This document shows, one piece after another, positions 663-31,652 of a stretch of 32,000 nucleotides of DNA; the stretch's first letter is position 1, and the number at the start of each line of letters is the position of its first letter. This stretch comes from Nostoc punctiforme PCC 73102 (GTDB lineage: Bacteria > Cyanobacteriota > Cyanobacteriia > Cyanobacteriales > Nostocaceae). Location: the NCBI RefSeq assembly GCF_000020025.1, contig NC_010628.1, positions 8,190,001 through 8,222,000 of the forward strand, written 5' to 3'. The notes under the pieces were generated by a model. The model was not told the DNA's origin, made no database searches, and saw only the letters and a list, made by a program, of their open reading frames with translations. The position numbers and the translations under genes were made by a program.

Positions 663-700
663 TCAATAAAAGACTGTTTAACTGGCGAAAGCCTAGATTT

Positions 701-6061: not shown

Positions 6062-6095
6062 ATCTTATTTATTCGCCTTTCTCTAAGGTTTTACT

Positions 6096-6146
6096 ACTGC
6101 GGCCACTTTATGCTTTAAAAACGGCCACAATATCCTTTAAGTGACA
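6096..6146. repeat. 51-bp terminal inverted repeat, tniQ-proximal end of copy 2
   Basis: Reverse complement matches 582..632 except one C/G difference at position 34. Ends ...AAGTGACA at 6146. Confidence 0.8.
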
Positions 6147-9054: not shown

Positions 9055-9071
9055 TAATCCAAGGGTTAATT

Positions 9072-10310
9072 ATGTTTGTTTTTATAGTAACTTATGATAA
9101 TTTCCTCAAACTTCGTCCAAGTAAGTTAGCGGAACTAGCTGAAGATGAAAAAATTCTGATTCCAGTCAAAAGGGTCTTACAGATTATTTCTTATACTGAA
9201 GAGAAAGAATATTACAGAATTATCTTGAAAAACTCTATCAATGGCAAAGATACATGGTTTGTCCGTAAGGAGCATATTGAGATATCTGATTATCTAACTT
9301 ATTATTATGAGAATGCTTATATCGGCTCTACTGTTGCAGTTAATAATATCGAGTCTTATGCTAATTTTCGTTCTTCGGATTTTGGCGGTATCGAGGTTGA
9401 AGAAGAAGTTATTAAACAGTTAAAAGTGCAGCTACAAGAAACTCCAACTATTCAAGAACGATCTTTACAACCTGCCGATATAACTAAAGATTTGGTCGAT
9501 TGTAGTGTGTTCAGTCCTGCTTCTGTAACTCCAAACGATATGTTTCTCGTCCAAGTCTTTGTTCATCTTCCTGAACAAGTTGAATCTGCCAAACAGAATG
9601 CTCAACAATTTGATCCTGAAGCTAAACAGTTAGGTGTGAGAAGTTTAGGAGTACCTATTAAACGGGGAAGTGAACTCACTTTTAACTTGTCAATTCCAAA
9701 ACTAGAAGTGGACGATCCGATTCAAAATTTGAGTTGGAATGGTAGAGCAGATTCTATTCAATTTGGAGTAACGGTTCCTGCTGATATAACTCAGAAAACA
9801 GTCATTGGAATTGTTACTGCCAGCCAAAACACAATTCCTCTCGGTCATCTAAAATTCAAATTATCGATTATTCCGTCTGCGTCTTCTACATCAAAAGAGC
9901 CTCAATTAGTAGGAGAAGTTGCTCGACATTATACAAAAGCATTCGTCTCTTATTCTTCTAAAGATCGGACAGAAGTTCTTAAAAGGGTACAGGGACTTGC
10001 TGTAAGTGGCATTACAGTTTTTCAAGATATCCTTAATTTAGAACCTGGCGATCGCTGGGAGCAAGAACTTTATCGCAACATTGATGAGTGCGATCTCTTC
10101 TTACTATTTTGGTCTACTGCTGCGAAAGAATCGCCGTGGGTGCTTAAAGAAGTCTTGTATGCTCTTGAGCGACAAGGATCTGATGGATTACGTTCCCCCG
10201 AAATTATTCCTGTAATCATAGAAGGCCCACCACTTGTTCCTCCACCTCCTGAATTGCAGGATCTCCATTTTAATGACAAACTTCTTTACTTAATGGCGAC
10301 ATCTAAATAG
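9072..10310 (+). CDS. Protein with unknown N-terminal/middle domains and a C-terminal TIR domain (412 aa)
   Basis: TIR signature from ~aa 289 (9936..10310): KAFVSYSSKD...CDLFLLFWSTAAKESPWVLKEVLYA, with a conserved Glu codon at 10149..10151. Starts 17 nt after the NUDIX stop. Confidence 0.8.
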   Translation: MFVFIVTYDNFLKLRPSKLAELAEDEKILIPVKRVLQIISYTEEKEYYRIILKNSINGKDTWFVRKEHIEISDYLTYYYENAYIGSTVAVNNIESYANFRSSDFGGIEVEEEVIKQLKVQLQETPTIQERSLQPADITKDLVDCSVFSPASVTPNDMFLVQVFVHLPEQVESAKQNAQQFDPEAKQLGVRSLGVPIKRGSELTFNLSIPKLEVDDPIQNLSWNGRADSIQFGVTVPADITQKTVIGIVTASQNTIPLGHLKFKLSIIPSASSTSKEPQLVGEVARHYTKAFVSYSSKDRTEVLKRVQGLAVSGITVFQDILNLEPGDRWEQELYRNIDECDLFLLFWSTAAKESPWVLKEVLYALERQGSDGLRSPEIIPVIIEGPPLVPPPPELQDLHFNDKLLYLMATSK

Positions 10311-10355: not shown

Positions 10356-11279
10356 TTATCTTGCCCATTGCTGCAAGATATAAGTATAAAAAGCGTCTTT
10401 ATCTACTTTATCCATCGCATAAATTTTCCGACCGCCAGAAACTACTTTAGTCCGCCCCTGGCTGACTCCAGTAGTGATAATTTCTGTTTCCCATTCGCGC
10501 AATTGATAAAATTCTGGGTGTCCCAAATAAGCTGTGGCCAGCACATCCCAAAAATAATAATCTTGGGGAATAACTAGCGCATAACATTGTCCGGCTAAAT
10601 CAGAGATGGGATAGTGGCGTTGTCGCCCCATTTTTTGCACTAATTCTGATGTGACTGGAACATTATTAGTTAAATCCAAAGGACACATAATAATTTCAAT
10701 TTTGGTTTCCCATACCCGCGCTGCTGAAACCGCGTCCCAATAAACATTCCATTCGGCAGAACCATCTTGTCCAGGTTCTAAACTTTTTTCTACATTGCCA
10801 CCGACATTCAAAGCACCTCCCATCCACACAATTTTGTGAATTTTGGCTTCAATATCCGGTGCTTTGTCTAAAGCTACTGCAACGGTGGTCAACGGCCCAG
10901 TTACCATCAACGTTACGGGGTCTGATGCCTCACGCAACACCTTAATCATGAAATCTTGACCTGTTTCGGCAACTAGAGGCGTAGTAATGGTTTCCCTTTG
11001 ATTGAGAATGGGGAGATGGTCAACGATAAAGGAATCACGGCGATAGAGAGTAGGAAATGGATTGATGCCGCGCACAGTGCTTTCTGCAACCGAGATATGA
11101 GAAAATCCCATCAAATCGAGAATTTTACGTGTGGCGCTAACAGCCGGTTGGATGTAGCAATCTGCTGGAGTGATGACAACACCAAGGAGTTCGATACGAT
11201 CCATCGTCAACAGCAGCATAGTTGCCAGATAGTCATCTACACCGCCATCGTGATCCATTAATACAAGTTGTTTTGACAT
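10356..11279 (-). CDS. Inosine/uridine-preferring nucleoside hydrolase family protein
   Basis: N-terminal aspartate cluster LMDHDGGVDDYLA (DxDxxxDD motif of IUNH enzymes). 307 aa. Confidence 0.85.
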   Translation of the reverse strand: MSKQLVLMDHDGGVDDYLATMLLLTMDRIELLGVVITPADCYIQPAVSATRKILDLMGFSHISVAESTVRGINPFPTLYRRDSFIVDHLPILNQRETITTPLVAETGQDFMIKVLREASDPVTLMVTGPLTTVAVALDKAPDIEAKIHKIVWMGGALNVGGNVEKSLEPGQDGSAEWNVYWDAVSAARVWETKIEIIMCPLDLTNNVPVTSELVQKMGRQRHYPISDLAGQCYALVIPQDYYFWDVLATAYLGHPEFYQLREWETEIITTGVSQGRTKVVSGGRKIYAMDKVDKDAFYTYILQQWAR

Positions 11280-11295
11280 AAAAGGAGATATTAAT

Positions 11296-11727
11296 ATGGA
11301 TGAGTTTATGGAAGCTGCGATTCAAGAAGCAAAACAAGGCAGAGAAGAAGGTGGAATTCCCATTGGTTCGGTTCTCGTCAAGGATGGCAAAATTCTCGGC
11401 AGAGGACACAATAAACGTGTACAAGATGGCGATCCTGTCACGCACGCGGAAATCGATTGTCTCCGCAATGCTGGAAGAGTTGGCAGCTACAGAGGCACTA
11501 CACTCTATTCAACTTTAATGCCGTGTTACCTGTGCGCTGGGGCTGTGGTGCAATTTGGTATTAAAAAAGTCATCGTCGGAGAATCCCAAACTTTTCCTGG
11601 TGCTAAAGAATTTATGGTATCTCACGGTGTGGAAGTAATCGATCTTAATCTTGACGATTGCGAACAAATGATGAGTGAGTTTATTGAAACGAATCCCGAA
11701 CTTTGGAATGAAGATATCGGTAATTAG
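11296..11727 (+). CDS. Cytosine deaminase of the CMP/dCMP zinc-deaminase fold (yeast Fcy1-like)
   Basis: HAE (THAEIDCL) and PCxxC (MPCYLCAGA) zinc motifs. The C-terminus ETNPELWNEDIGN resembles Fcy1 (recalled from memory). Confidence 0.8.
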   Translation: MDEFMEAAIQEAKQGREEGGIPIGSVLVKDGKILGRGHNKRVQDGDPVTHAEIDCLRNAGRVGSYRGTTLYSTLMPCYLCAGAVVQFGIKKVIVGESQTFPGAKEFMVSHGVEVIDLNLDDCEQMMSEFIETNPELWNEDIGN

Positions 11728-11749
11728 AGACGCGATTAATCTCGTCTGT
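11726..11749 (+). terminator. Hairpin dispersed repeat AGAGACGCGATTAATCTCGTCTGT at the cytosine deaminase stop (possible terminator)
   Basis: Imperfect inverted repeat read directly. Same family as 6251..6271. Confidence 0.35.
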
Positions 11750-11932
11750 ACAAGAGTTTGGAGTAGCCCGCGTCTCGGTTACTTTTGATAGGAGAATTAT
11801 GGCAGAAGCGATGGCTTAACCGCCCCCCGGAGGCGATCGCTATCTAAAAGAAATACAACAGAATAAGCTACTCGACTGCCAAGCATTCAGCCCAGACAAA
11901 AAAAGTTACCTTCACACGGATACTCATCACTC

Positions 11933-13057
11933 CTAACGCAGCAAAAGTGTGCTGTTATTATCAATCAGTGTAAGAGTTCCACCAGTGGACATACCTGGGT
12001 TGGACTGTGCTGATGCATTATAAGTCTCAATATAGCGACGCACTTCTAATGGAAAGTGGGGATAGTCTAATACTGCATCTCCATCAGCGATAGTTGCCCA
12101 GAAGTCTCGCAAACTAGGAGCTAATCTTTTCGCCTGTGATAGTGGTAAGTTTAATGGAGAGTGAGTTAGTAACTTGACTAAAAAGGGAAAAGAGCGATCG
12201 CCCATCCACTGCCGCGATGACTCTTGCAAGTCTGGAAAATCAGGCACTGACTCTACCCGATGGGATAAAATTTGCAAAGATTCTTTACCTTGGTTATCCC
12301 GATGAAACTCTAGCACCCGATAAGGGTGAGGATAGCTCACTAAAGAACCAGTGGTAATATCATATACTCCATCTGAGTAAGCAATATCCTGAACATGCAA
12401 ATGCCCTGTGAATACTAGCTTGACTCCGTAGCGCCTCAGCAATTGCAACAGTTCTGCTGAATTGGACAACATGTAGCGATTTGCCAGTGGATGGTTCGAT
12501 TGATTGGGTAAATGTTCCACCACATTATGATGCACCATCACCAAAACTAATTCATCAACAGATGCCGCCAGCACCTCTTCTAACCACCGTAGCTGTTTGG
12601 CATCCAAACACCCTACCTGCTCCCCCTCGTCATTAAAGTAGTTAGAATTCAATCCAATCAGCTTGACTCCAGGTAGCAATTGACGAATGTAGTAAATCTG
12701 CTGCGGATCTTCATAGCCAAACTTCGTGTAATAGTGGGGAAAATCCGCGAAAGCAATTGATTGCTGATCTGCCAACAGCACAGGAACGTCATGATTACCA
12801 GGAACAACATAGACGGGAAAAGGTAGCTGGGCTAAACATTGTTGTAACCAGGCATGGTTTTCTGGTTCGCCGTGCTGGGTTAAATCTCCTGGCAACAATA
12901 AGAAATCTAAATCTAGTTGTGTTAGATGTTCTAGTACACTTTGAAACGCCGAGATACTGACTTCTACCAGATGAAAACGGCTAGGATGATCCCAGATTGT
13001 GTGGGGAAGCGCCACGTGTAAGTCGCTAACTACCGCAAAGCGAAAATTGAGAGTCAT
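11933..13057 (-). CDS. Calcineurin-like metallophosphoesterase
   Basis: Motifs VSDLHV, GDLTQHG, GNHD, VHHN and GHLH in canonical order. Confidence 0.85.
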   Translation of the reverse strand: MTLNFRFAVVSDLHVALPHTIWDHPSRFHLVEVSISAFQSVLEHLTQLDLDFLLLPGDLTQHGEPENHAWLQQCLAQLPFPVYVVPGNHDVPVLLADQQSIAFADFPHYYTKFGYEDPQQIYYIRQLLPGVKLIGLNSNYFNDEGEQVGCLDAKQLRWLEEVLAASVDELVLVMVHHNVVEHLPNQSNHPLANRYMLSNSAELLQLLRRYGVKLVFTGHLHVQDIAYSDGVYDITTGSLVSYPHPYRVLEFHRDNQGKESLQILSHRVESVPDFPDLQESSRQWMGDRSFPFLVKLLTHSPLNLPLSQAKRLAPSLRDFWATIADGDAVLDYPHFPLEVRRYIETYNASAQSNPGMSTGGTLTLIDNNSTLLLR

Positions 13058-13334
13058 TGATTTATGAAAATGTTAAAAGCAGAGGTTAAAACAAGTCTTT
13101 TTCCAAAAGTATAACGCTTGGTTTGTTTCGCTGCTCAGGAGTGCATTTACTTAATATTTGTATACATTAAGCATCGATTACACGCTATGGTGACAATTAA
13201 TTTCGAGGCTGAATATAACCATTAATCTGCAAAAACATTGGAGATTTGATCTAAAGATTTAATAATCAACAGATTTAATAATCAACGTTCAAGTAACCGG
13301 GCGATCGCTTCTATCTGCACGCAAACAATTCAAT

Positions 13335-13440
13335 AGTCTCTAAGCGTAGCCCTTCTCTACGAGAAGCTGCGCCCTAAACGTAGCTATGCCGCAGGCTTTA
13401 CGGCTGCGCTCAGGAACCACTCGTCGTAGACATCGCTTTC
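13335..13440. repeat. Nostoc-type dispersed repeat (CTCTACGAGAAGCTGCGC... / ...GTCGTAGACATCGCT)
   Basis: Shares the CTCTACGAGA(A/C)GCTGCGC core with 21705..21730. GTCGTAGACATCGCT recurs at 14441..14455. Confidence 0.45.
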
Positions 13441-13513
13441 TTTGTTGGTTTCTCTGCTACTCCCCTTTTCGGTAAAATAACTTAGCAGATCGCTAAGGAA
13501 CAGGTTCAGGATC

Positions 13514-14386
13514 ATGGCTCAAGCTAGTATTGGGATTATTGGTGGCAGTGGTCTGTATAAAATGGACGCGCTCAAAGATGTAGAAGAGGTGCATATCCAA
13601 ACCCCCTTTGGTTCACCATCTGATGCTTTGATTCTGGGAACATTGGATGGTACACGGGTAGCTTTTTTGGCGCGTCATGGCCGCAATCACACGCTGTTAC
13701 CCTCTGAGTTACCGTTTCGCGCTAATATCTATGCGATGAAGCAATTGGGTGTGAAGTATTTAATTTCAGCTAGTGCTGTGGGTTCCTTGAAGGAAGAGGC
13801 GAAACCATTGGATATGGTGGTGCCAGATCAGTTTATTGACAGAACCAAAAATCGGATTTCCACGTTTTTCGGTGAGGGAATTGTGGCTCATATTGCCTTT
13901 GGCGATCCGATTTGTAAGAACTTGGCTGCTGTGTTGGCAGATGCGATCGCATCTCTCAATTTACCAGATGTTACTCTGCATCGCAGCGGTACTTATGTGT
14001 GCATGGAAGGGCCAGCTTTTTCCACTAAGGCAGAATCGAATCTTTACCGCAGTTGGGGCGCAACTATCATTGGGATGACGAATTTACCAGAGGCGAAGTT
14101 GGCAAGGGAAGCGGAAATTGCATACTCAACCTTAGCGCTGGTGACAGATTATGATTGTTGGCATCCAGACCATGACAGTGTGACGGTGGAATTGGTGATT
14201 GGCAATTTGCTGCGGAATGCTGTGAATGCTCAAAAGGTGATTCAAGAAACTGTGCGGCGCTTGAGTGAAAATCCGCCAACCAGTGAGGCGCATTCGGCGT
14301 TGCAGTATGCGATTTTGACTCAATTGGATAAAGCACCAGCCGCAACGAAGGAAAAGTTAGGGTTATTGTTGCAGAAGTATTTGTAA
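13514..14386 (+). CDS. mtnP: S-methyl-5'-thioadenosine phosphorylase
   Basis: 290 aa. N-terminal [10 protein letters not shown] and PNP/MTAP family layout ([30 protein letters not shown]). Confidence 0.9.
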
Positions 14387-14509: not shown

Positions 14510-15313
14510 ATGTTTGATAATGTCTGTCGCTTTTTAGCAGAGTCATTTTCAGCCGATTTCGCTACTTGGTTACTTGGCGAATCTATTTCACTCACCCAAC
14601 TCAGTCCATCAGAATTATCCCTCGAACCAATTCGAGCAGATGCGTTAATTCTGTTACAGTCAGATGAAATTGTCCTGCATATCGAATTCCAGACCGAAGC
14701 AAAAGCCGAAATTCCCTTTCGGATGACTGATTATCGGTTAAGAGTGTATCGAAAATTTCTCCGAAAGCGGATGTATCAAGTTGTCATTTACCTGCAACCC
14801 ACCGCATCCGAATTAGTCCAGCAAACAGCTTTTGTTTTAGAAAATACCCGTCATGAATTTGGAGTTATTCGTCTTTGGGAACAACCCAGCGAGATATTTT
14901 TAAATACTCCTGGTTTGTTACCGTTTGCAACCCTCAGTCAAACTAAGGATAAAACGCGAACATTACAACAGGTTGCAGAAGCTATTGAGCAAATAAACGA
15001 TACTCGAACACAAAGTAATATTGCTGCTTCAACGGCAATATTAGCTGGGTTAGTATTAAACAAGGAACTGATTAAAAATTTATTACGGAGTGATGCTATG
15101 CGCGAGTCTGTAATTTATCAGGATATCCAGCAGGAAAAAGCTTTATCGATTATTATACGACAACTTTGTCGAAAGGTTGGAACTGTACCACCTGCACAGC
15201 TATTGAAAATACAAGCTTTGGACTCAACACAGTTGGATGATTTAGCTGAGGCTTTACTTGATTTTTCGGATTTAACCGATTTAGAAGCTTGGTTAGCGCA
15301 AAATCAAGGTTAG
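14510..15313 (+). CDS. Rpn-family / PD-(D/E)xK putative recombination-promoting nuclease with DUF4351-like C-terminus
   Basis: MFDNVCRFLAE... N-terminus and ADALILLQSDEIVLHIEFQTE (D...ExQ) core typical of the multi-copy cyanobacterial family. Assignment is from memory. Confidence 0.6.
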   Translation: MFDNVCRFLAESFSADFATWLLGESISLTQLSPSELSLEPIRADALILLQSDEIVLHIEFQTEAKAEIPFRMTDYRLRVYRKFLRKRMYQVVIYLQPTASELVQQTAFVLENTRHEFGVIRLWEQPSEIFLNTPGLLPFATLSQTKDKTRTLQQVAEAIEQINDTRTQSNIAASTAILAGLVLNKELIKNLLRSDAMRESVIYQDIQQEKALSIIIRQLCRKVGTVPPAQLLKIQALDSTQLDDLAEALLDFSDLTDLEAWLAQNQG

Positions 15314-15322
15314 TGATGCAAG

Positions 15323-15542
15323 AGCGATCGCACTTCCTCAGATTACAGTAACAGCGATCGCACTTTCTCAAATTACAGCAAAAGCGATCGCATTTTCTGA
15401 GATTACAGTAATAGCGATCGCACTTTCTCAAATTACAGTAATAGCGATCGCATTTTCTGAGATTACAGTAATAGCGATCGCACTTCCTCAGATTACAATA
15501 ACAGCGATCGCACTTTCTCAAATTACAGCAAAAGCGATCGCT
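15323..15542. repeat. Tandem array of 30-bp units, each starting with HIP1 (AGCGATCGCAYTTYCTSARATTACARYAAH), about 7.3 copies
   Basis: Unit starts at 15323, 15353, 15383, 15413, 15443, 15473, 15503 and 15533 (partial). The units are contiguous with no spacers. Confidence 0.9.
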
Positions 15543-15630
15543 ACAACGGGCTACGTCTACGCACCATCAGATTTTTCAGTGGCGTACCATTATTATAAAA
15601 TCATATAAGTGATAACACGTAAACATATAA

Positions 15631-15798
15631 GCGTTTCATCAACAAACTCATGCGTTTCATCAACAAAGGCATGCGTTTCATCAACAAACTCATGCGTTTC
15701 ATCAACAAACTCATGCGTTTCATCAACAAAGGCATGCGTTTCATCAACAAAAGCATGAGTTTCATCAACAAAAGCATGAGTTTCATCAACAAAGGCAT
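15631..15798. repeat. Tandem array of 21-bp units (GCGTTTCATCAACAAACTCAT), 8 copies plus a degenerate ninth
   Basis: Unit starts at 15631 and every 21 nt to 15778. Variation is confined to a few positions (ACT/AGG/AAG, GCG/GAG). Confidence 0.9.
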
Positions 15799-15985
15799 AA
15801 ATTTCGTTATGAAGCTTTGCTTGTTCGTGGTGTCTGGCAGATTTATTCTAAGTTGGGGCTGCTCATTATAGAAATCTCTCCGCGTACCCTAATCAAAAGA
15901 CCTCTCCCTGCTTTTACTACACAAAATTATCCCTCTCCGACTCGCAGAGAAACTTGAACTTTAGTTCAAGGTAGGGAGAGGTCTA

Positions 15986-18900
15986 TCACCTGCGTGTGCC
16001 AATATCATCACATAAATGCTTATCGTCCTTGCTCACATTGGGGTTATTTTGCAAATAATCGCGCACCCAAGTACAACCCTTAACCATTAAATCATCCAAA
16101 TTGAGATTCCACAGTTTCACCGTCTTGTCAGAACTTGCAGAGGCAATGGTTTGACCGTCGGGGCTAAATGCCACGCCCCAAACCGAACTGCTATGACCAG
16201 TGAGAGTTTGTAAGAGTTGCCCGTTGCGATTCCACAGCTTCACCGTCTTGTCATCACTTGCAGAGGCAATGGTTTGACCGTCGGGGCTAAATGCCACGCC
16301 CCTAACCGAACTGCTATGACCAGTGAGAGTTTGTAAGAGTTGCCCGTTGCGATTCCACAGCTTCACCGTCTTGTCATCACTTGCAGAGGCAATGGTTTGA
16401 CCGTCGGGGCTAAATGCCACGCCCCTAACCGAACTGCTATGACCAGTGAGAGTTTGTAAGAGTTGCCCGTTGCGATTCCACAGCTTCACCGTCTTGTCAT
16501 CACTTGCAGAGGCAATGGTTTGATCGTCGGGGCTAAATGCCACGCCCCAAACCGAACTGCTATGACCAGTGAGAGTTTGTAAGAGTTGCCCGTTGCGATT
16601 CCACAGCTTCACCGTCTTGTCATCACTTGCAGAGGCAATGGTTTGACCGTCGGGGCTAAATGCCACGCCCCTAACCGAACTGCTATGACCAGTGAGAGTT
16701 TGTAAGAGTTGCCCGTTGCGATTCCACAGCTTCACCGTCTTGTCATCACTTGCAGAGGCAATGGTTTGACCGTCGGGGCTAAATGCCACGCCCCAAACCG
16801 AACTGCTATGACCAGTGAGAGTTTGTAAGAGTTGCCCGTTGCGATTCCACAGCTTCACCGTCTTGTCATCACTTGCAGAGGCAATGGTTTGACCGTCGGG
16901 GCTAAATGCCACGCCCCAAACCGAACTGCTATGACCAGTGAGAGTTTGTAAGAGTTGCCCGTTGCGATTCCACAGCTTCACCGTCTTGTCATCACTTGCA
17001 GAGGCAATGGTTTGACCGTCGGGCCTAAATGCCACGCCATTAACCGAACTGCTATGACCAGTGAGAGTTTGTAAGAGTTGCCCGTTGCGATTCCACAGCT
17101 TCACCGTCTTGTCATCACTTGCAGAGGCAATGGTTTGACCGTCGGGGCTAAATGCCACGCCCCTAACCGAACTGCTATGACCAGTGAGAGTTTGTAAGAG
17201 TTGCCCGTTGCGATTCCACAGCTTCACCGTCTTGTCATCACTTGCAGAGGCAATGGTTTGACCGTCGGGGCTAAATGCCACGCCCCAAACCGAACTGCTA
17301 TGACCAGTGAGAGTTTGTAAGAGTTGCCCGTTGCGATTCCACAGCTTCACCGTCTTGTCATCACTTGCAGAGGCAATGGTTTGACCGTCGGGGCTAAATG
17401 CCACGCCCCAAACCGAACTGCTATGACCAGTGAGAGTTTGTAAGAGTTGCCCGTTGCGATTCCACAGCTTCACCGTCTTGTCATCACTTGCAGAGGCAAT
17501 GGTTTGACCGTCGGGGCTAAATGCCACGCCCCTAACCGAACTGCTATGACCAGTGAGAGTTTGTAAGAGTTGCCCGTTGCGATTCCACAGCTTCACCGTC
17601 TTGTCATCACTTGCAGAGGCAATGGTTTGACCGTCGGGGCTAAATGCCACGCCCCAAACCGAACTGCTATGACCAGTGAGAGTTTGTAAGAGTTGCCCGT
17701 TGCGATTCCACAGCTTCACCGTCTTGTCATCACTTGCAGAGGCAATGGTTTGACCGTCGGGGCTAAATGCCACGCCCCTAACCGAACTGCTATGAGCTTC
17801 TAATCGGTTACGTTCTTTGACTCCATAAATTACTTGCTGGAGTGTGGCTACTGCCAAAACGCGGGTATTTGGTTCTACCTTTTTATTTGGTGTTTTGAGT
17901 CGTTTTCCTACCTTCAAACCTTCTATTAAAGCATCAAGTTCAAAATTTGATGCCATCAGGTTTTGTGATTTCAGGCTATTGGCAAGAATTTCGGCATTTA
18001 TCCGGCGTTTATCTGCATCGGCTTTGGCGGCAATTGCTTGCTGTTCTTGTTTCTGGGCAATGTTTCGCTGTTTTTCAGCGTCTGCCTGTCTATCCTTTGC
18101 TAATTGTTCAGCCGCTTTTGTTTGCTTAAGGGCTTTTTCTAAGTCTATTCCTCGTTTTTCTGCTAATTCCTGTGCCGACTTGGCTTGTGCCTCACCTGTT
18201 TCAGCCCTTTGACGCTGCTTGTCTGCCTCCCGGTGTTGTTCCTCTGCTTTTTGCTGCTGGTTCTGAGCATTTTTTGTTTGACGGTCTGCTTCTTGCCGCT
18301 GTGTTTGTTCTCTTTTTAGGGCATCTTGAGCAATTAAACGTTGCTCTTTTTCACTGTCACGGGCTTTTTGGGCAATCAGATTTTGCTTGTAAATATACCA
18401 AGCGACTCCCGTCGATAATGTCGAAAATACAATCATTACAATCACATAAGGCAGTGCAGGTTTAAGCTGTTCCCATCTATCCCGCAAGTTAAACGGCAAA
18501 TGTTTATTAATCCACTTATAATCAAAGACTTGCCGATAAACTTCATTCCGCACCCGCAAAACATTATTCTCCCGCCGCACCACCCCTGAAAGCTTTAAGT
18601 GAGATTTAGCTAAAGACTGTTCTTCATCCACAACCGCCCGCTTACCCCAGCGAATCTCGCGGTAAATAGTCAAAACCTCCGGGTCTGGTGAGCGTTTGGT
18701 GAGCATATCGCGGACAAACTGCAAGTTATTGTCTTGTTCGCTCATTGCGCCAAAAAATGTGCTGCTAACTATGCTGTCTATATCGGCAGAGGATAAGACT
18801 CGATCCCCCCTAACCCCCCTTAAGAAGGGGGGAACAATAGAACTGTTGCTAACGGGGGCTGTGGGAATCTCCAAATCTGGAAGTTCATTGCCCCCCTTTT

Positions 18901-19675
18901 TAAGGGGGGTTGGGGGGATCAAAACCAAGGCATCACAGAGACGCTGCGTTAAATAAGGATGTCCCCCCGTCCACTTCAACACCTGGCGTAATACCTGCTT
19001 AGACTCATCGCTGGGTAATCCCAATCCCTCAGCGAAGGGTAAGGCTTCCTCAAAGGTAAAATCAGTTAAATCCACACGCTGTCCAATATTAAACGGTGTG
19101 CGCTTGGCATCGCTGATTAAATCGCCGGGAGTCGCTACCCCCATTAAAACAAAAGAAAGCCGCCCAAACTCAGGATTAGTCGCACGGGCAACATAGAGAT
19201 AACGAATTGCGATAAAAAAATCATCGGTAAAATCCAGGCTGAGGGTAGAGTCAATTTCATCCACAAAAATCACCACTTGCCCTTCAACCTCAGCCAGCAA
19301 AACCTTCTCAAAAAACTGTGTCAGCCGTTGCGATACTCCCAGATGCTCGTGTTCTTGCCACCAACTCACCACATCTGTATCAAACATAAGTTGGTCATCC
19401 AGTTTGACCAAAAAGCCAAAATACCACTGTTCGGCTGTGACACTTGCCCCCAATTCCTGAAGGTCAACAATTACTGAGCTAATCCCCTCTTCCCTTAATG
19501 TGTCTGCCGTGCGTACCATCAGGCTAGACTTACCCATTTGGCGCGGCGTTAGCACATAGGCGAATATTGCTGACCGACATAAACCAAGCAATTCCTCATC
19601 AGCTTGACGGGGAATGTAAATCCCACTGCCAGCCTGTACAGTCCCCCCCACGGTGTAAATGCTTGGATTACCCAC
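15986..19675 (-). CDS. STAND-like (AAA_35-type) ATPase - TM helix - coiled coil - 14x WD40 protein, 1229 aa
   Basis: Walker A TPRQMGKSS, Walker B VVIFVDEID, GGHPYL motif. Hydrophobic segment at aa 406-429, Q/E/K/A-rich segment at aa 430-566, and 14 WD40 units of 41 aa from aa 628. The GTG start overlaps the upstream gene's stop. Confidence 0.9.
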   Translation of the reverse strand: MGNPSIYTVGGTVQAGSGIYIPRQADEELLGLCRSAIFAYVLTPRQMGKSSLMVRTADTLREEGISSVIVDLQELGASVTAEQWYFGFLVKLDDQLMFDTDVVSWWQEHEHLGVSQRLTQFFEKVLLAEVEGQVVIFVDEIDSTLSLDFTDDFFIAIRYLYVARATNPEFGRLSFVLMGVATPGDLISDAKRTPFNIGQRVDLTDFTFEEALPFAEGLGLPSDESKQVLRQVLKWTGGHPYLTQRLCDALVLIPPTPLKKGGNELPDLEIPTAPVSNSSIVPPFLRGVRGDRVLSSADIDSIVSSTFFGAMSEQDNNLQFVRDMLTKRSPDPEVLTIYREIRWGKRAVVDEEQSLAKSHLKLSGVVRRENNVLRVRNEVYRQVFDYKWINKHLPFNLRDRWEQLKPALPYVIVMIVFSTLSTGVAWYIYKQNLIAQKARDSEKEQRLIAQDALKREQTQRQEADRQTKNAQNQQQKAEEQHREADKQRQRAETGEAQAKSAQELAEKRGIDLEKALKQTKAAEQLAKDRQADAEKQRNIAQKQEQQAIAAKADADKRRINAEILANSLKSQNLMASNFELDALIEGLKVGKRLKTPNKKVEPNTRVLAVATLQQVIYGVKERNRLEAHSSSVRGVAFSPDGQTIASASDDKTVKLWNRNGQLLQTLTGHSSSVWGVAFSPDGQTIASASDDKTVKLWNRNGQLLQTLTGHSSSVRGVAFSPDGQTIASASDDKTVKLWNRNGQLLQTLTGHSSSVWGVAFSPDGQTIASASDDKTVKLWNRNGQLLQTLTGHSSSVWGVAFSPDGQTIASASDDKTVKLWNRNGQLLQTLTGHSSSVRGVAFSPDGQTIASASDDKTVKLWNRNGQLLQTLTGHSSSVNGVAFRPDGQTIASASDDKTVKLWNRNGQLLQTLTGHSSSVWGVAFSPDGQTIASASDDKTVKLWNRNGQLLQTLTGHSSSVWGVAFSPDGQTIASASDDKTVKLWNRNGQLLQTLTGHSSSVRGVAFSPDGQTIASASDDKTVKLWNRNGQLLQTLTGHSSSVWGVAFSPDDQTIASASDDKTVKLWNRNGQLLQTLTGHSSSVRGVAFSPDGQTIASASDDKTVKLWNRNGQLLQTLTGHSSSVRGVAFSPDGQTIASASDDKTVKLWNRNGQLLQTLTGHSSSVWGVAFSPDGQTIASASSDKTVKLWNLNLDDLMVKGCTWVRDYLQNNPNVSKDDKHLCDDIGTRR
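16106..17794 (-). repeat. 14 tandem near-identical 123-bp repeats encoding WD40 blades
   Basis: Unit HSSSV[W/R/N]GVAF[S/R]PD[G/D]QTIASAS[D/S]DKTVKLWNRNGQLLQTLTG. The nucleotide units differ at only a handful of positions. Confidence 0.95.
18802..18920. mobile_element. 119-bp palindromic G/C-tract mini-element (SDR/MITE-like) inside the STAND-WD40 CDS
   Basis: Arms are GATCCCCCCTAACCCCCCTTAAGAAGGGGGG and, on the other side, CCCCCCTTTTTAAGGGGGGTTGGGGGGATC, around a 57-bp centre. Translated in frame as ~aa 252-292 (LIPPTPLKKGG...PPFLRGVRGDR). Confidence 0.6.
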
Positions 19676-21203
19676 GTAGATGCTCCCGGAAATAATCGGT
19701 ATAAAGTTGACAACGAGGAAACACTACACGCCCTTCCCGGCGCACCAAACCCGCACCCCGCAACCGGAAAAAGATGCGCTCATCTTCACAGGTGTTCTGG
19801 TGAATTACTTGGAACATACCTTGAACCAACTCCTGTTTGTTATGCAGCCGGAAGAGGTGGTTACGCAAATGATTGCCAAAGGGGCCATCCTCTGCGATCG
19901 CATTGGCAAATAATTCGGTAGGATAGAGGCGATCGCTAGCAACTGAGTAAAGTGCAAGGCGTACTAAGTAAGGATGTCCACCTAGCAACGCTATTAATTG
20001 CTTTTCTTCGCTGGCATTGAAGGGTGAACCATGACGGCGGTTTAAATCAGCAACCTGTGCTGCTGTAAAATCTTCTAAATCAATTACTAGCCCAACATTA
20101 AAGGGGGATTGGTTGAGATTATCAATTAGCTGGTAGGGTTCGGTGGAAGTAACCAGCGCTAAATCCAGTTGCTTCCAGATGGGATTAGTGGCGCGGCTAT
20201 TGTGCCAGCTTCGCAGCATTCCAAAGAAATCAGAGCGAAAATCAGTATCAAAGACCCTTTCAACTTCATCCATCGCTAAGACAATGGGGTTGCCAAACTC
20301 TTTGAGCAAATAGCGGCCGACGTAGCGAGTGCAACGCTGACTATTGCCCAAAGGCATATTCCAATACTCATCAACTTTATCTGTCATTTCCAGTTCATCA
20401 GTTAACCAAGTACAGAACTGGCGAAAGAAAAGGTCAGCATTAGTTAAGGCAGCTTTGTCAAACAATTGAAAATCCAGCAAAGCAACCCGCTTACCTGCAT
20501 TCACAGCAGTATTAATTGTGCGGATTAACAGGGAACTTTTGCCCATTTGCCGGGGGCCTTTAATTGTAATTGTCACACCCTGCCGCTCAATAGTCTCTAA
20601 AGTAAGGGCATCAGATGAGCGTTCCACGTAAAAAGCGGATTGCGATTCCATTGTTCCTTCGGGCATTTCCAGGGAGACAGGCTGTGCTGAAGGAAAGGGA
20701 CGGGGTAGGAGTGACGGCTGACTCTTCTGGATTAAGTCTGCTTTTGATTTTTCTTCACTGATAGCTAATGCACCGCCATAGACAGCCTGCAACAACTCTG
20801 CAATTAGTCGCGGCGTATCTTCTGCATCTTTCCAGAATGCCCAGTTAATCCCATTTAAGTAAGCACTCAAGGGATACAGGAACGGTTCTTGATACGCCAG
20901 ACGCACCGGGAGAATTATCGGTCGTCCTGACTGTGATTTTGCCAAGTGGTGTGCTGTCTCTATCTCTGCCACCACCATCTCGCTGCTAGTTGACAAAGCA
21001 GAAAGGAAAGTAATCAAAAAATCAGCTTGGCGGATTTCTGCTTCAATACATTCAGCCCAGCGTGTGCCAACAGACATGGTTTGGTCGATGAAGACTTTGT
21101 GCTGCTGCGATAGTGCTTGGAAGACTTGGAGTGCTACTGGTTCATCGGGGCTAGCATTACGCTTGTAACTGATGAAGATGCGTTTAGCCTGTGAGTTTAA
21201 CAT
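19668..21203 (-). CDS. TIR domain - STAND-like (AAA_35-type) ATPase, 511 aa
   Basis: N-terminal TIR (RIFISYKRN...ADFLITFLSALSTSSEMVVAEIE). Walker A GPRQMGKSS, Walker B IVLAMDEVE and GGHPYL. The ATPase module is paralogous to that of the downstream WD40 protein. Confidence 0.85.
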   Translation of the reverse strand: MLNSQAKRIFISYKRNASPDEPVALQVFQALSQQHKVFIDQTMSVGTRWAECIEAEIRQADFLITFLSALSTSSEMVVAEIETAHHLAKSQSGRPIILPVRLAYQEPFLYPLSAYLNGINWAFWKDAEDTPRLIAELLQAVYGGALAISEEKSKADLIQKSQPSLLPRPFPSAQPVSLEMPEGTMESQSAFYVERSSDALTLETIERQGVTITIKGPRQMGKSSLLIRTINTAVNAGKRVALLDFQLFDKAALTNADLFFRQFCTWLTDELEMTDKVDEYWNMPLGNSQRCTRYVGRYLLKEFGNPIVLAMDEVERVFDTDFRSDFFGMLRSWHNSRATNPIWKQLDLALVTSTEPYQLIDNLNQSPFNVGLVIDLEDFTAAQVADLNRRHGSPFNASEEKQLIALLGGHPYLVRLALYSVASDRLYPTELFANAIAEDGPFGNHLRNHLFRLHNKQELVQGMFQVIHQNTCEDERIFFRLRGAGLVRREGRVVFPRCQLYTDYFREHLRG

Positions 21204-21430
21204 TACTATTAACCTTGTCTTCCTTCAGCTTTTTAAGTAGAAAAGCTTATCTAATTGCGTGTCAATTTTGTACAGAAGTTGGGTAATTCTGTGCTTTGTC
21301 ATCCAAGGGCATTTTTTCCCTATTTCGAGAATTAGCTGAACAAATTAGGATTTTATTCACAGCGCTATCAATTAGTTACACTCTACTACAGCGCAGTTGC
21401 AGGCAATTACCGACAGCACAAAAAAATTGC

Positions 21431-21556
21431 TTACGGAGTTCAAAGGCTCATTAACGGAGTTCAAAGACTCGTTAACAGAGCTAAAAGACTCGTTAATGGA
21501 GCTAAAAGACTCGTTAACGGAGTTCAAAGACTCGTTAACGGAGTTCAAAAACTCGT
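21431..21556. repeat. Tandem array of 21-bp units (TAACGGAGTTCAAAGACTCGT), 6 copies
   Basis: Units at 21431, 21452, 21473, 21494, 21515 and 21536. Lies ~230 bp upstream of the TIR-ATPase start codon. Confidence 0.9.
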
Positions 21557-21657
21557 TAGAGATATGAAAAATAATGTAGAAATGTAGCAGTGCTACGTCT
21601 CTACAAGGATTCTAGATGATGCATATTTAATTTATAGAGATATCTATTATTGAAGAA

Positions 21658-21825
21658 GAATTCAGAAGCCAGAATTCAGAAGTCAGAATCAAGATGCGAC
21701 GCTCGTTCCTCTCTACGAGACGCTGCGCGTAGCTCGCTTCTCCGTAGGAGTACGCTAACGCTACGCTATCCACCAGTCATACAGAATACCCAAGTGAATT
21801 CTGACTCCTGACTCCTGAATTCTGG
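21658..21825. repeat. Stem-loop dispersed repeat with heptamer-built arms (CAGAAGY/CAGAATY)
   Basis: GAATTCAGAAGCCAGAATTCAGAAGTCAGAATC pairs imperfectly with GAATTCTGACTCCTGACTCCTGAATTCTGG. The core shares CTCTACGAGACGCTGCGC with 13335..13440. Confidence 0.6.
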
Positions 21826-21863
21826 TCAATAAAGTTTTAGGGAATTAAACCCCATTTCAAACC

Positions 21864-21895
21864 AAAACAAAGCCTGCATAAACAGGCTTTGTTTT
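21864..21895 (-). terminator. Strong hairpin (13-bp stem AAAACAAAGCCTG / CAGGCTTTGTTTT, 6-nt loop), bidirectional terminator-like, downstream of the 197-aa lipoprotein gene
   Basis: Perfect stem read directly, with A-run and T-run flanks built into the stem. Lies 64 nt past the stop of 21959..22552. Confidence 0.6.
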
Positions 21896-21958
21896 AGTAG
21901 CACCAGACTATAAGTCTGTGCGCGCTTTCAAATTTTTACAAGAATTAAATGACTAATT

Positions 21959-22552
21959 TCAATCAACCGCCCTCTTCACTGCATTGCCTGCATCGTCAGC
22001 TGTACGCCGAACATTTCTACCAGCATCCTCAGCCCCACGCTGAACATTTTTTGTCGCGTCTTCGGCAGCATTTTGGGTATTACCTTTGAGATTTTCAATT
22101 CCTCGCTGAGTCCCCTTAACTACGCCTTCTCCCAATTCATTAGCTGAACTGCCGATATCTTCACCCAGGTTCTTCACTCTTTCACCAAAGGGTGTACCTT
22201 GCTTGTAATTTCGGCCATACTGCTCTGGGCTGTCAATTCCCTTCTGCTCGATATTTCTTTGAGCATTTTTCGCCAGTGCATCAGCTCTGTCAGTCGCTGC
22301 TTTCTCGTCTAATCTGCCTCTGGGTTCTACATCACTAAAGTTATTCATTCCACCAGCAGGAGAAGAGAGAGGATAATCTTTTGTGGGATCGTATCGTTTG
22401 GAATAAGGTGATTGAGCATCAGGCTGTGGTGGCTGTGTTGCTATTCCTGGGGCACCACAAGCTTGTGTCAAGAATAAGAATATCCCTGCCAAAAAAACTG
22501 TTAAAACTTTCAAGGGACGAATGCTTTTGAGCCAATTCATTGCTTTTTTCAT
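21959..22552 (-). CDS. Putative lipoprotein with a low-complexity charged C-terminal region
   Basis: Signal peptide plus lipobox-like LTQAC. The C-terminus has repeated A/E/D/K/N-rich ~11-mers (NAAEDATKNVQRGAEDAGRNVRRTADDAGNAVKR). Confidence 0.55.
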   Translation of the reverse strand: MKKAMNWLKSIRPLKVLTVFLAGIFLFLTQACGAPGIATQPPQPDAQSPYSKRYDPTKDYPLSSPAGGMNNFSDVEPRGRLDEKAATDRADALAKNAQRNIEQKGIDSPEQYGRNYKQGTPFGERVKNLGEDIGSSANELGEGVVKGTQRGIENLKGNTQNAAEDATKNVQRGAEDAGRNVRRTADDAGNAVKRAVD

Positions 22553-22652
22553 AGTGCTAAACTCCTTGCATTTTTGTGACTAAGTTAAACTTTAACCAAG
22601 ATGGCATTTGGAATTAATTTTGCATTCCAAGTATTCAGACAAAATAAGGATT

Positions 22653-23222
22653 CTATCTGCCTACTGCTGGATTTCTTTGTAATTCAGGTCTGCGACTTGC
22701 TTCATCTGCCTTATTTTTCAAAAAGCCGGAAGCTTCTTCAACAGTCTCTTTTACAGTCTCAAGCCGATCTTGAACCCGATCTCCAACATTTGGTTCATTC
22801 TGAATCAAACCACCGGGTTCAGGCTGGCGGAAATCTTTATCTGTGATGAGTGGCAACTCTGCTTCTTTATTGATTCGACCTGCTGGTGTCTCAGCACCAG
22901 GATAAAGTATCTTAGATTCTCTATCTGCTGTAGCAATCAACAATTCCAAACTTGGTTGTAAGCTAGCTTGGTCGCGTCCCTGACTGGCTTTTGGATTTGC
23001 TATTTTCGGATCGGTAGACATTCTGTAGTTGCCATACTTGTCTCCACCATTCTTATAAGGATTGTTTGCTCCACCAGCTTGCACAGCAGGGTTTTGTGGA
23101 TTTGCACCTTGAGCATTTGCCCCACTACAAGCAGTGCTGACTATCAACAATAGTCCAGCTAAAAAGATAGTTAATATCTGGCGCAATCTTATTTGTTTCA
23201 AGAATAGTCTCACAGCGTTCAC
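22653..23222 (-). CDS. Putative lipoprotein, N-terminally similar to the neighbouring one
   Basis: Signal peptide plus VSTAC. The leader (LKQIRLRQILTIFLAGLLL) is similar to LKSIRPLKVLTVFLAGIFL of 21959..22552. Confidence 0.55.
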   Translation of the reverse strand: MNAVRLFLKQIRLRQILTIFLAGLLLIVSTACSGANAQGANPQNPAVQAGGANNPYKNGGDKYGNYRMSTDPKIANPKASQGRDQASLQPSLELLIATADRESKILYPGAETPAGRINKEAELPLITDKDFRQPEPGGLIQNEPNVGDRVQDRLETVKETVEEASGFLKNKADEASRRPELQRNPAVGR

Positions 23223-26137: not shown

Positions 26138-26188
26138 TGTCACTTAAAGGATATTGTGGCCGTTTTTAAAGCATAAAGTGGCCGCAGT
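26138..26188. repeat. 51-bp terminal inverted repeat, tniQ-proximal end of copy 3
   Basis: TGTCACTTAAAGGATATTGTGGCCGTTTTTAAAGCATAAAGTGGCCGCAGT, identical to the reverse complement of 6096..6146. Confidence 0.8.
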
Positions 26189-26222
26189 AGTAAAACCTTA
26201 GAGAAAGGCGAATAAATAAGAT

Positions 26223-27809
26223 TTACTGTGAAAGATCCAGTCTTATCTGCCTTAAAACATCAATTACCTCAGCCTGCCACAGCAAAGAGGGATGAGGCAT
26301 AAATTTTCTGAGATTTTTAGCAGTAGGGGTAATGCCTTGTGCATGAAGTACTGAAGCGAGTTGGCGTACTTCTCGACAGCCTTGCTCAATAGCTAGTTTA
26401 TGGACGAATTTGCGGTAATCTTTATAGCGTAAAGAAATAGCATGGCACACAATAGGGCAATAGTGGTAGAAAGTAGCCAAACCAATACCAGTTCTCTTAG
26501 CTATTTTTCTTAGAGAAGGTGGTGGATACTCGTCGCTAAACAAAGCTAATTCAAGTATGTCTCTGATGTGTAAAAATCTTAGCTGCTGTTGATATTCACT
26601 ATATCTAGTAGCCAAAGATGCTGATAAAGATTTTGAGCAAGCAGTTAAACTACTAGGAGTTTTGAATCCTAAACGAACAGCTAATTGAGTTAAAGAAGGA
26701 GGTGGTTCTTCTTCTTGAGCTAGTTGCATCGCCTGAATAACTCGTTCGCACTTAGGACTACTATTTGAAGTAACTAAAGCAGACTGTGATGATAATTTTT
26801 TCTGTTTAGGAGCAGGTAGAGAAACTAGCTGCTTAAGAGTAAGAGGTAGTATTTTAAGTTGAAGAAAATCGACAAGATTAGTTGATAAGGCGTAGCAGAT
26901 TTTCAAAAGTTTATCTAAATTTGGGATGGCTACACCTGAATACCAATGTAGAATTTCATATCTCGATAACCCAAGCCAACGACCAAAAGCGGAAACATTA
27001 CCTTGAGTATATTGATAGACGTAAGCTTCTAGGATTGTTTTAATAGTCTCTCTTGGAGGTGGACAAGGAAATTCAGGAGCTTGAGCAATTAAATCTCCTA
27101 AAGTCTTAACTATCCAAATCTCTTGCTGTAAATTGGGTATCTCCTCGAACAATCTCTTATCTGGCAAAGATACTTCATAGTTCATCCCCAACCAACCACC
27201 ACATTTCAGACAAAATCCAGGTCGTGAGTTATGCCACAGGTGTAAAAATTCAAGGTCACAGTGAGGACATTTTGATTCTAAAAATCGATAATGGATGGGA
27301 CAAATGTTAGCTGGTTTCAAAGCCCACAGCAGAGGTGAATAAATGACTTGTTGATTATTTAACCAGTCTTGATAGCAATAAGGACACCAAGCATGAGAAT
27401 GCTTGAGCAATCCCAAAACTGGGAAGACTTTTGCCCAAGGTAGCATTGTCAAAAACTGTAAGTCAGTACGTTTTGTCAATATTTCTAGAGCAAAAACCAG
27501 TTGTTTAGCTCCAATTTGTGTTCCGTTTAAAGCTTTTACAGAAGCTTGTCCATACAAACTTACGATACTTTTAGAATTCAAGGGATTGGTAGTATGGTTA
27601 TGCCCAACTATTGGTTTTATCTCTCTAGCCAATAAAGTTCCAGGCAATACGCTATGAGCTGCGGCTAGACGAGCAACATAGCTAGTCAGACTTTCAACAT
27701 AACAAGTACCAAGTCCAATCGGTTCCAGATGAAACAACCGGCTAGGACTGGGAGTAAATTCTGGGTCTTTGAGCCACAATTCATCGTTAACCGCCATGTT
27801 AGTCATCAT
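26223..27809 (-). CDS. tniQ: Long TniQ/TnsD-like target-selection protein, 528 aa (identical to copy 2)
   Basis: Translation identical to ORF 4475..6061. Confidence 0.8.
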   Translation of the reverse strand: MMTNMAVNDELWLKDPEFTPSPSRLFHLEPIGLGTCYVESLTSYVARLAAAHSVLPGTLLAREIKPIVGHNHTTNPLNSKSIVSLYGQASVKALNGTQIGAKQLVFALEILTKRTDLQFLTMLPWAKVFPVLGLLKHSHAWCPYCYQDWLNNQQVIYSPLLWALKPANICPIHYRFLESKCPHCDLEFLHLWHNSRPGFCLKCGGWLGMNYEVSLPDKRLFEEIPNLQQEIWIVKTLGDLIAQAPEFPCPPPRETIKTILEAYVYQYTQGNVSAFGRWLGLSRYEILHWYSGVAIPNLDKLLKICYALSTNLVDFLQLKILPLTLKQLVSLPAPKQKKLSSQSALVTSNSSPKCERVIQAMQLAQEEEPPPSLTQLAVRLGFKTPSSLTACSKSLSASLATRYSEYQQQLRFLHIRDILELALFSDEYPPPSLRKIAKRTGIGLATFYHYCPIVCHAISLRYKDYRKFVHKLAIEQGCREVRQLASVLHAQGITPTAKNLRKFMPHPSLLWQAEVIDVLRQIRLDLSQ

Positions 27810-28938: not shown

Positions 28939-29106
28939 AGCTCCTCTGTATTGTAAGCTTCTATTTTGGTTAAATCTATTAATTTTTTTGCTGATGATTT
29001 TGGCTTTTTAATGCTTTCTGAACCTGCCAAAATATTTTTATCTACATCTTGAACATTAGCTGAATAATTGTGTTTACTTAATTTACTTTCAATAACTGAG
29101 CTTTTT

Positions 29107-31584: not shown

Positions 31585-31652
31585 AAATCTAGGCTTTCGC
31601 CAGTTAAACAGTCTTTTATTGATATAAATATTTATACTTACCAGTTCAGATG

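Follow-up and report, generated by a model that had tools for sequence, protein, structure and literature searches.

Nostoc punctiforme PCC 73102 carries two overlapping genes, A and B, which we are inclined to read as a self-contained two-gene signaling module, with B as the receptor and A as a TIR output, built on anciently duplicated AAA_35 ATPase modules. The genes lie within 32,000 nucleotides (nt) of contig NC_010628.1 (RefSeq assembly GCF_000020025.1, positions 8,190,001 to 8,222,000), a stretch referred to here as the window and numbered from its first letter. Both are encoded on the minus strand. Gene A (19668..21203), the output component, was delineated by open reading frame (ORF) and Pfam analysis as a 511-amino-acid (aa) TIR and AAA_35 ATPase protein, and gene B (15986..19675), the sensor component, encodes 1229 aa that comprise an AAA_35 ATPase module, a predicted transmembrane helix, a helical stalk, and 14 WD40 repeats. 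More tentatively, B may be a transmembrane receptor that relays to the paralogous ATPase of A, a “NOD relay” that would join Toll-like outside sensing to NLR-like oligomerization. The same tentative reading extends to the class as a whole, which would be undescribed and widespread in filamentous Cyanobacteria, Chloroflexota, and Acidobacteriota.

The paired AAA_35 ATPases and their conservation

The two ORFs share 8 nt (GTGGGTAA, 19668..19675, minus strand), which places the start codon of B within the end of A and marks a site of translational coupling. The junction reads CTACGTGGGTAATCC on the minus strand, where the GTG start of B occupies 19675-19673 and the TAA stop of A 19670-19668, and a GGGAG motif is found 7 nt 5' of the GTG. 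An initial annotation of the window, made from the letters alone, had reported this overlap between a 511-aa and a 1229-aa ORF, and its coordinates hold, with the GTG start 8 nt inside the end of A. Pfam likewise bears out the domain layout given there, with TIR_2 and AAA_35 in A and with AAA_35 and 14 WD40 matches in B, and this domain content supports the suggested division of labor between a sensor and an effector protein.

We recovered 4995 homologs of A; identity of the TIR-AAA_35 core ranges over 67-99% in the 120 best of those listed. In a scan of species-representative genomes, at least 577 loci were confirmed, and the best 80 of these were examined; they come from Cyanobacteria, Acidobacteriota, Chloroflexota, and KSB1, and A identity spans 62-98% across them. 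Of these 80 loci, 74 have a B-type AAA_35 gene immediately downstream of A in the same orientation and three have it divergently upstream; two run into a contig end and one holds an orphan A. This only true orphan (L048) is a second copy in the complete genome of Scytonema HK-05. The co-occurrence of the two genes, which the initial annotation had raised as a check, is therefore found in 77 of 80 loci, with one evaluable locus lacking B. The exact overlap of 8 nt recurs in 53 of the 74 same-strand loci, with a GTG or ATG start and in all four phyla, and is strong evidence of selection on coupled translation.

The pairing also holds in the reverse direction. Four B homologs were picked independently of A because their C-termini differ (one with TPR, one with a kinase, and two short forms); an A-type gene immediately precedes each of them, and in three cases the 8-nt overlap is kept too. 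In addition, a Tolypothrix plasmid encodes an A protein with the order HTH-TIR-AAA_35 (HTH, helix-turn-helix), 34% identical to that of the window, followed by AAA_35-transmembrane helix-WD40, and on an Abditibacteriota plasmid, A and the AAA_35-PAS-GAF protein that follows it are encoded between two genes for XerC recombinases. The two ATPase modules separate cleanly by score, with at least 458 bits for A-type and at least 350 bits for B-type modules against their own type and at most 124 bits across types, which indicates that the duplication is older than the spread of the system. They thus belong to one Pfam family as two well-separated paralogous groups, in agreement with the common origin suspected in the initial annotation. 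Paralogy by itself would also fit two independent homo-oligomeric ATPases that are adjacent merely through tandem duplication. We regard this as highly improbable, since adjacency, order, and the 8-nt overlap are kept across phyla and down to the 34%-identical A, the genes co-occur in both directions, A has no sensor, and B usually has no effector.

Across 62 distant loci, no flanking gene family was found that could represent a conserved third gene. The clusters that did recur among distant loci proved spurious, consisting of ORFs within A and B that are antisense or out of frame. We also observe no match to the pair among 50,697 phage records. On one metagenomic contig (L083, 1-5008) a decaying copy is present, in which A is split between TIR and AAA_35 by two DDE_Tnp_1_4 insertion sequence (IS) copies, and the intact B gene keeps its 8-nt overlap with what is left of A.

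The ATPase and winged-helix module of A spans residues 180-507 (19683..20666, minus strand; Pfam AAA_35, PF14516, E 2e-121), and that of B residues 11-392 (18500..19645, minus strand), with the AAA_35 match itself at 11-245 (E 2.9e-36). Against a gathering score of 27 bits, A reaches 405 bits (profile positions 1-331) and B 125 bits (profile positions 4-238). By BLASTP, A and B align over 237 aa at 33% identity (E 2e-35), with a separate 25-aa match in the C-terminal hairpin. The contiguous alignment thus covers about 240 aa and not the roughly 320 aa claimed initially, owing to an insertion of 40 aa in B. Walker A and Walker B read GPRQMGKSS and LAMDEVE in A (20532-20558 and 20259-20282) and TPRQMGKSS and IFVDEID in B (19523-19549 and 19250-19273). 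The GGHPYL motif is present in both proteins, as had been noted (A, 19965-19982; B, 18950-18967; all on the minus strand), and we take it to be the GxP/GLPL-type motif of STAND nucleoside triphosphatases (NTPases). All three motifs are conserved across 80 A-type and 71 B-type sequences; with its motifs intact, neither paralog looks like a degenerate, inactive subunit.

This last point bears on a quite different role for B, namely that of a guard or inhibitor, in which an antitoxin-like heteromer would keep A inactive and the perturbation or loss of B would free TIR activity. In its favor, toxin-antidote pairs typically show such tight translational coupling, with fixed stoichiometry. A, which lacks a sensor, might also be active by itself, and decay of the pair does occur, as seen in the orphan A (L048) and in the A gene disrupted by IS copies (L083). 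However, the gene order is toxin-like first and regulator second, B is large and rich in sensor repeats, and nucleotide-binding motifs that are intact in both proteins fit an active switch. A constitutively toxic orphan A in a complete genome would moreover be lethal, unless it is inactive. On balance, the guard role appears rather improbable.

To place the AAA_35 fold, AlphaFold2 models were compared by Foldseek. For A (mean predicted local distance difference test [pLDDT], 72.6), the plant protein RPP1 is the best match (E 5e-13, over the TIR and nucleotide-binding domains), followed by 2qen, 2fna, Avs4, Avs3, ORC1, WRR4A, and Roq1. The model of B residues 1-660 (mean pLDDT, 73.6; about 90 at residues 20-250) matches 2qen, archaeal ORC2, 2fna, and Cdc6/Orc1, and then Avs4 and Avs3. 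In both proteins a helix/beta-hairpin module is predicted C-terminal to GGHPYL, the order of GxP helical domain and then winged helix seen in STANDs. A Protein Data Bank (PDB) search with the A profile gave P-loop (RecA) and TIR matches only, with no solved AAA_35 relative among them. The fold matches of the two models suggest that AAA_35 is an ATPase with lid and winged helix at the border between ORC/Cdc6 and STAND proteins. The label “STAND-like” of the initial annotation stands in part. The P-loop and the GxP/winged-helix features agree with it, whereas the nearest relatives of the predicted fold appear to be archaeal PF01637-type ATPases and ORC/Cdc6 proteins, with canonical STANDs ranking lower for B. 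Effector and sensor are also divided between two proteins, both here and in 77 of the 80 relatives, and not joined on one polypeptide as in a tripartite STAND.

Predicted membrane helix and WD40 array of gene B

Directly after its ATPase module, B contains a predicted transmembrane helix (residues 407-429; 18389..18457, minus strand), a hydrophobic 23-mer with the sequence ALPYVIVMIVFSTLSTGVAWYIY. With a Kyte-Doolittle 19-mer score of at least 1.6 at the homologous site as the criterion, such a segment is found in 51 of 56 WD40-type B proteins, the other five being borderline at 1.39-1.59, and in 95 of 113 B database homologs versus 3 of 120 A-family proteins. The hydrophobic 19-mer follows the ATPase module directly in nearly all B proteins, across phyla. 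Its presence tracks the domain that is fused behind it: the helix precedes WD40 repeats in 40 of 42 cases and is also found before TPR, pentapeptide repeats, PF28006, and a CarboxypepD_reg-like domain (PF13620), while it accompanies none of the fused domains that need the cytoplasm (kinase, 0/3; DUF4062, 0/1; PAS-GAF, 0/1). In five loci (L011, L024, L027, L050, and L072) CHASE2 (E 1e-52 to 1e-74) replaces stalk and WD40 repeats, followed in four of the five by a second hydrophobic segment at about residues 690-730 and, in L011, by a Ser/Thr kinase after that segment. Where PMC8195603 and PMC3501461 cite Zhulin et al. (2003), CHASE2 is described as an extracellular sensory domain flanked by membrane helices. 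The DUF4062 form is a B-family homolog (P0232) that fuses the ATPase to DUF4062 (PF13271) and has no membrane helix; a 2026 preprint describes this domain as a TIR-like NADase.

A conserved helix whose presence tracks the fused domain argues that B is most likely a transmembrane receptor and not an intracellular NLR. The ATPase of B would then probably lie inside the cytoplasm, with the stalk and the WD40 propellers outside it. Lysine and arginine residues are more frequent on the ATPase-side flank of the helix in 47 of 68 B proteins and less frequent in seven, a bias that is indicative only, because the B sequences are related. In the window, the helix is followed by a charged stalk (residues 431-624; 17804..18385, minus strand). 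AlphaFold2 predicts an uninterrupted helix over residues 397-575, with low confidence (pLDDT 44-52) at 440-500, and further helices at 579-594 and 602-627. The hydrophobic 23-mer and this continuous helix support the transmembrane and “coiled-coil” segments that had been assigned to B in the initial annotation. A Pfam match of the stalk to Borrelia_P83 was dismissed as compositional.

The 14 WD40 units of 41 aa (16082..17803, minus strand; Pfam and Tandem Repeats Finder [TRF]) are predicted to form two seven-bladed propellers. At the DNA level, TRF resolves the array as 13.8 copies of a 123-bp period at 98% identity, and internal units recurrently differ at codon 9 only, which is AGG or TGG (R/W). 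In orthologs, the units are 85-98% identical to their own array consensus, and when residues are numbered from the GH dipeptide, within-array variation is focused at positions 4-8, 23, and 25 of the unit. We assume that these positions form the ligand-contacting top face of the WD40 blades. With 98% identity to its consensus, the array of the window is unusually uniform. Draft Nostoc contigs often end inside the array (L001, L002, L005, L007, L010, L012, L013, L015-L018, and others), and most B proteins in databases are “partial” because draft assemblies break within such near-identical repeats. The repeat number in short-read assemblies, and possibly that of the window too, should thus be treated cautiously.

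The same features can be set against an intracellular split NLR, in which a cytoplasmic WD40 array would bind a phage or invader protein and the helix would serve as a tether at the inner membrane face. Architecture and fold do resemble TIR-NLRs and Avs proteins, hypervariable top-face positions fit protein recognition, and WD40 sensors are known in cytoplasmic bacterial STANDs (PMC13581612). Nevertheless, a single spanning helix puts the ATPase and the WD40 repeats on opposite sides of the membrane, and its occurrence with WD40, TPR, CHASE2, and PF13620, and not with kinase, PAS-GAF, or DUF4062, is hard to explain for a mere tether. PADLOC models also return no Avs or NLR match. We therefore consider this arrangement unlikely, and the analogy with intracellular NLR and Avs proteins that was drawn initially is incomplete, given the conserved single-pass helix of B and a sensor that is most likely across the membrane.

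Two further features of B are specific to particular regions of the protein. The insertion that interrupts the alignment with A is a palindromic element resembling a miniature inverted-repeat transposable element (MITE), 120 nt long and in frame (18800..18919, minus strand), which encodes a 40-aa disordered loop (residues 253-292). It is a G/C-run element with inverted-repeat arms at 18802-18834 and 18888-18920 (CCCCCTAACCCCCCTTAAGAAGGGGGG and its complement), and the encoded loop lies between the GGHPYL helix and the winged helix, with AlphaFold2 pLDDT below 50 at residues 256-289. At this site most B orthologs have nothing, while others have a shortened version or other inserts (FVETRFIAS, Gly/Arg-rich runs), which points to the loop between GGHPYL helix and winged helix as an insertion hot spot. 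Finally, B ends in a C-terminal tail with two cysteines (KGCTW...HLCDD; 15989..16081, minus strand).

TIR output, candidate mechanism, and genomic surroundings

The TIR domain of A covers residues 9-128 (20820..21179, minus strand; Pfam TIR_2, E 1.4e-18). A single-sequence TIR query of the PDB matched nothing useful, and a profile of the A TIR region was built for this comparison; it matches Cat1 (E 4e-7) as well as AbTIR-type and SARM1 TIR domains. Glu80 (codon 20964-20966, minus strand) is invariant in alignments of 18 and of 11 homologs and aligns with the glutamate of the Cat1 motif WCWDEL. This is presumably the catalytic-Glu position of NADase TIRs, in the alpha-C helix. The invariant residue at the position of the Cat1 glutamate makes it plausible that the TIR domain of A is catalytically competent as an NADase.

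In the window, TIR is the sole N-terminal domain of A, with no extra output domain, as the initial annotation had it. The description does not extend to most relatives: outside the closest Nostoc group, A usually carries an N-terminal extension of about 200 residues, for which precomputed Pfam assignments give CHAT, kinase, adenylate cyclase, trypsin-like, or PF19960 domains, and an HTH precedes TIR in one plasmid copy. Since this extension varies among relatives, TIR appears as the constant part of A and the extra domain as a variable output, and TIR is not necessarily the final effector in the A family.

Together, these features suggest how a relay from B to A could operate. B would consist of a cytoplasmic ATPase, a single transmembrane helix, a helical stalk of about 170 residues, and two WD40 propellers that are most likely periplasmic. 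A would be a soluble output protein without a sensor of its own, with a putative catalytic glutamate in its TIR domain and, in relatives, often an additional N-terminal protease, kinase, or cyclase. As trigger, we envisage ligand binding to the top face of the WD40 blades, where they vary, whereupon the signal would cross the membrane through the stalk and helix of B, and the ATPase module of B would switch state and oligomerize. ORC/Cdc6 proteins are known to form hetero-oligomers of paralogous subunits, for example in entry 2qby. A could be recruited by similar contacts between paralogous ATPase modules, as among ORC/Cdc6 paralogs or in NLR pairs. Clustering of the TIR domains might finally lead to cleavage of NAD+, either as depletion or as production of a signal nucleotide, and to growth arrest or cell death.

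Several observations weigh against this relay and against an immune role. The topology is deduced from hydropathy, the logic of domain swaps, and a charge bias that is modest; in the window's own B the flanks are about equal, with three lysine or arginine residues before the helix and four after it. The A and B models are of moderate confidence (mean pLDDT 72.6 and 73.6), with a poor prediction of the stalk at residues 440-500. A near-uniform array with one recurrently variable codon argues against fine ligand discrimination in the window. The cores of A and B are unusually conserved for an arms-race system (A, 62-98% across phyla in the 80 loci), and in Nostoc the pair lies in conserved chromosomal synteny and not in an obvious defense island. 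With no significant PADLOC match and no phage carriage, an anti-phage role is unsupported.

High core conservation, chromosomal synteny, and the lack of a defense-model match would fit a general transmembrane signaling pair with swappable inputs and outputs, responding to environmental or cell-to-cell cues in filamentous bacteria, for instance in the control of differentiation or programmed cell death. Mechanistically this overlaps with the relay and differs in biological role. It is also in keeping with inputs of B that include CHASE2, PAS, and GAF and with outputs of A that include kinase, adenylate cyclase, and HTH domains. TIR, CHAT, and trypsin-type domains, on the other hand, are typical of cell-suicide and conflict systems (PMC7159879 and PMC8195603). 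Some copies are found on plasmids or between recombinase genes, and a WD40 array under concerted evolution with top-face variability resembles immune or allorecognition receptors. We hold general signaling to be possible, if somewhat doubtful; the evidence points both ways between the immune and general-signaling readings.

The neighbors of the pair in the window recur only in close Nostoc relatives. The pair lies within a segment of about 20 kb that is bracketed by two inverted, 100% identical 5.6-kb Tn7-like modules (582-6146 and 26138-31703), each with a TnsA/B-like protein (rve and Mu-transpos_C), a TniB/TnsC-like protein, and TniQ; even so, other Nostoc chromosomes show synteny with this segment. 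The large ORF of the module differs in length between the left copy (883 aa) and the right one (825 aa), of which only the latter gave a TnsA-like_N match. Bases 1-358 repeat 582-939 in inverted orientation, so that a third Tn7-like copy may adjoin the left end. The duplicated modules could reflect recent transposition, provide a substrate for inversion of the segment, or be an assembly artifact.

Downstream of B, the region 10356-14386 encodes an IU nucleoside hydrolase, a cytidine deaminase, a calcineurin-like phosphoesterase, and a PNP_UDP_1 phosphorylase, and six Nostoc genomes keep this run of nucleoside and nucleotide metabolism genes in synteny with the pair. Further along, in the region 8590-10310, a NUDIX gene (8590-9054, plus strand) ends 18 nt before the gene of a 412-aa protein, whose N-terminal 290 aa have no domain assignment and whose C-terminal part matches TIR_2 (E 5e-21). 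These two genes may form a second, unrelated TIR module in the window. Three intergenic tandem repeats flank the pair, at 15323-15541 (30 bp, 7.3 copies) and 15631-15798 (21 bp, 8 copies) downstream of B and at 21433-21558 (21 bp, 6 copies) upstream of A. A 122-aa ORF with a repeated CNLRKCDR peptide (15153-15521, minus strand) is probably the 30-bp repeat read in frame. Upstream of A and on the same strand, two adjacent ORFs of 197 and 189 aa (21959-23222; the second is DUF6658) have lipoprotein-signal-like N-termini (LTQAC and VSTAC) and adjoin the pair only in close Nostoc relatives. A promoter and terminator scan of 15300-22000 gave counts at or below shuffled expectation, and two hairpins just 3' of the B stop are not above chance.

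Comparison with known systems

In our classification, the pair belongs with the NLR/STAND-type TIR systems, as a membrane-anchored form divided between two paralogs. The initial annotation did not recognize this split as a named defense system, and a search of PADLOC-DB v2 likewise gave no significant match, the best being PDC-S01 (E 1.9e-4, 18 bits) and TIR fragments. Taken together, PADLOC and NCBIfam returned only sub-threshold TIR, P-loop, and WD40 matches, and a HEAT-ARM_XIII match of B in PADLOC is confined to the WD40 repeats. Thoeris was rejected as well. The TIR_2-type domain of A is weakly similar to the ThsB and ThcB4 models, but its score for NF058526, 28.8 bits, is far below the threshold of 220, and the loci have no ThsA-type effector gene and no conserved third gene.

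Full-text literature searches, made mostly outside subscription journals, so that an earlier description is possible, gave no description or name for the pair, and their matches to “AAA_35” were mostly unrelated strings. We found no mention of AAA_35, ORC-like ATPases, or the A/B pair in the eLife 2020/2021 conflict-system papers, a 2026 STAND phylogeny, a 2024 paper on diversity-generating retroelements (DGRs), and a survey of prokaryotic caspases. These papers do describe exchangeable effectors (TIR, caspase, and kinase), pairs of paralogous NTPases, and periplasmic sensors at some STAND loci, and PMC10907252 proposes paired STAND targets and periplasmic sensors at DGR loci.

Among bacterial systems, Avs1-7, bNACHT, and the STANDs of multicellular bacteria (Kaur et al. 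2020/2021; Dore et al. 2024) share the logic of effector, NTPase, and repeat sensor, and Avs3 and Avs4 are structural matches to both A and B. These systems also have swappable TIR, CHAT, trypsin, and kinase effectors and are enriched in filamentous bacteria. Unlike A and B, all these proteins are single polypeptides or need vWA-MoxR partners. No linked vWA or MoxR gene, as in the ternary systems of Kaur et al. (2020), is conserved across the 62 distant loci, and the neighbors in the window are unrelated.

As single domains, archaeal PF01637-type ATPases (PaBy2304, 2qen; SSO1545, 2fna) and ORC/Cdc6 are the best structural matches to both modules. They are without TIR domain, membrane anchor, or repeat sensor, and nothing suggests a role in DNA replication for A and B. 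The repeat array of B has a parallel elsewhere. In fungal NACHT-WD40 proteins (HNWD: HET-E/D/R), near-identical WD40 units vary at few surface positions, a pattern of concerted evolution with diversification. Near-identical tandem units with variation at few positions are seen in B as well, whereas the fungal proteins have a different NTPase family and are single cytoplasmic polypeptides.

Plant TIR-NLRs such as RPP1, Roq1, and WRR4A resemble A in placing TIR before a nucleotide-binding oligomerization module and a winged helix, and RPP1 is its top match. In plant paired and sensor/helper NLRs (RRS1/RPS4 and the NRC network), two paralogous, side-by-side genes divide sensing and execution. A and B are likewise neighboring paralogs specialized in these two tasks. 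The split is complete here, in contrast to the plant pairs, with A lacking repeats and B lacking an effector, and the genes are co-directional and overlapping. Their ATPase is AAA_35 and not NB-ARC, and B is membrane-anchored. If the predicted topology is right, the pair is also similar to Toll-like and CHASE2 receptors in having an extracytoplasmic sensor, one membrane helix, and a cytoplasmic TIR output. Sensor and TIR are nevertheless on two polypeptides bridged by paralogous ATPases, and the likeness to Toll-like receptors is, TIR fold aside, one of analogy.

The pair is common, and its inputs and outputs are modular. Ultimately, a function could be assigned, if this reading is true, to the unannotated “AAA-like domain-containing protein” genes that are abundant in cyanobacterial genomes, and with only two genes a reconstitution is realistic. 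NLR-like immunity in bacteria is so far known as single proteins that sense invaders inside the cell. A and B differ from it twice, in dividing sensing and execution between paralogous ATPases and in a sensor that is apparently across the membrane, and would, if this is confirmed, represent a prokaryotic counterpart both of plant sensor/helper NLR pairs and of Toll-like outside sensing.

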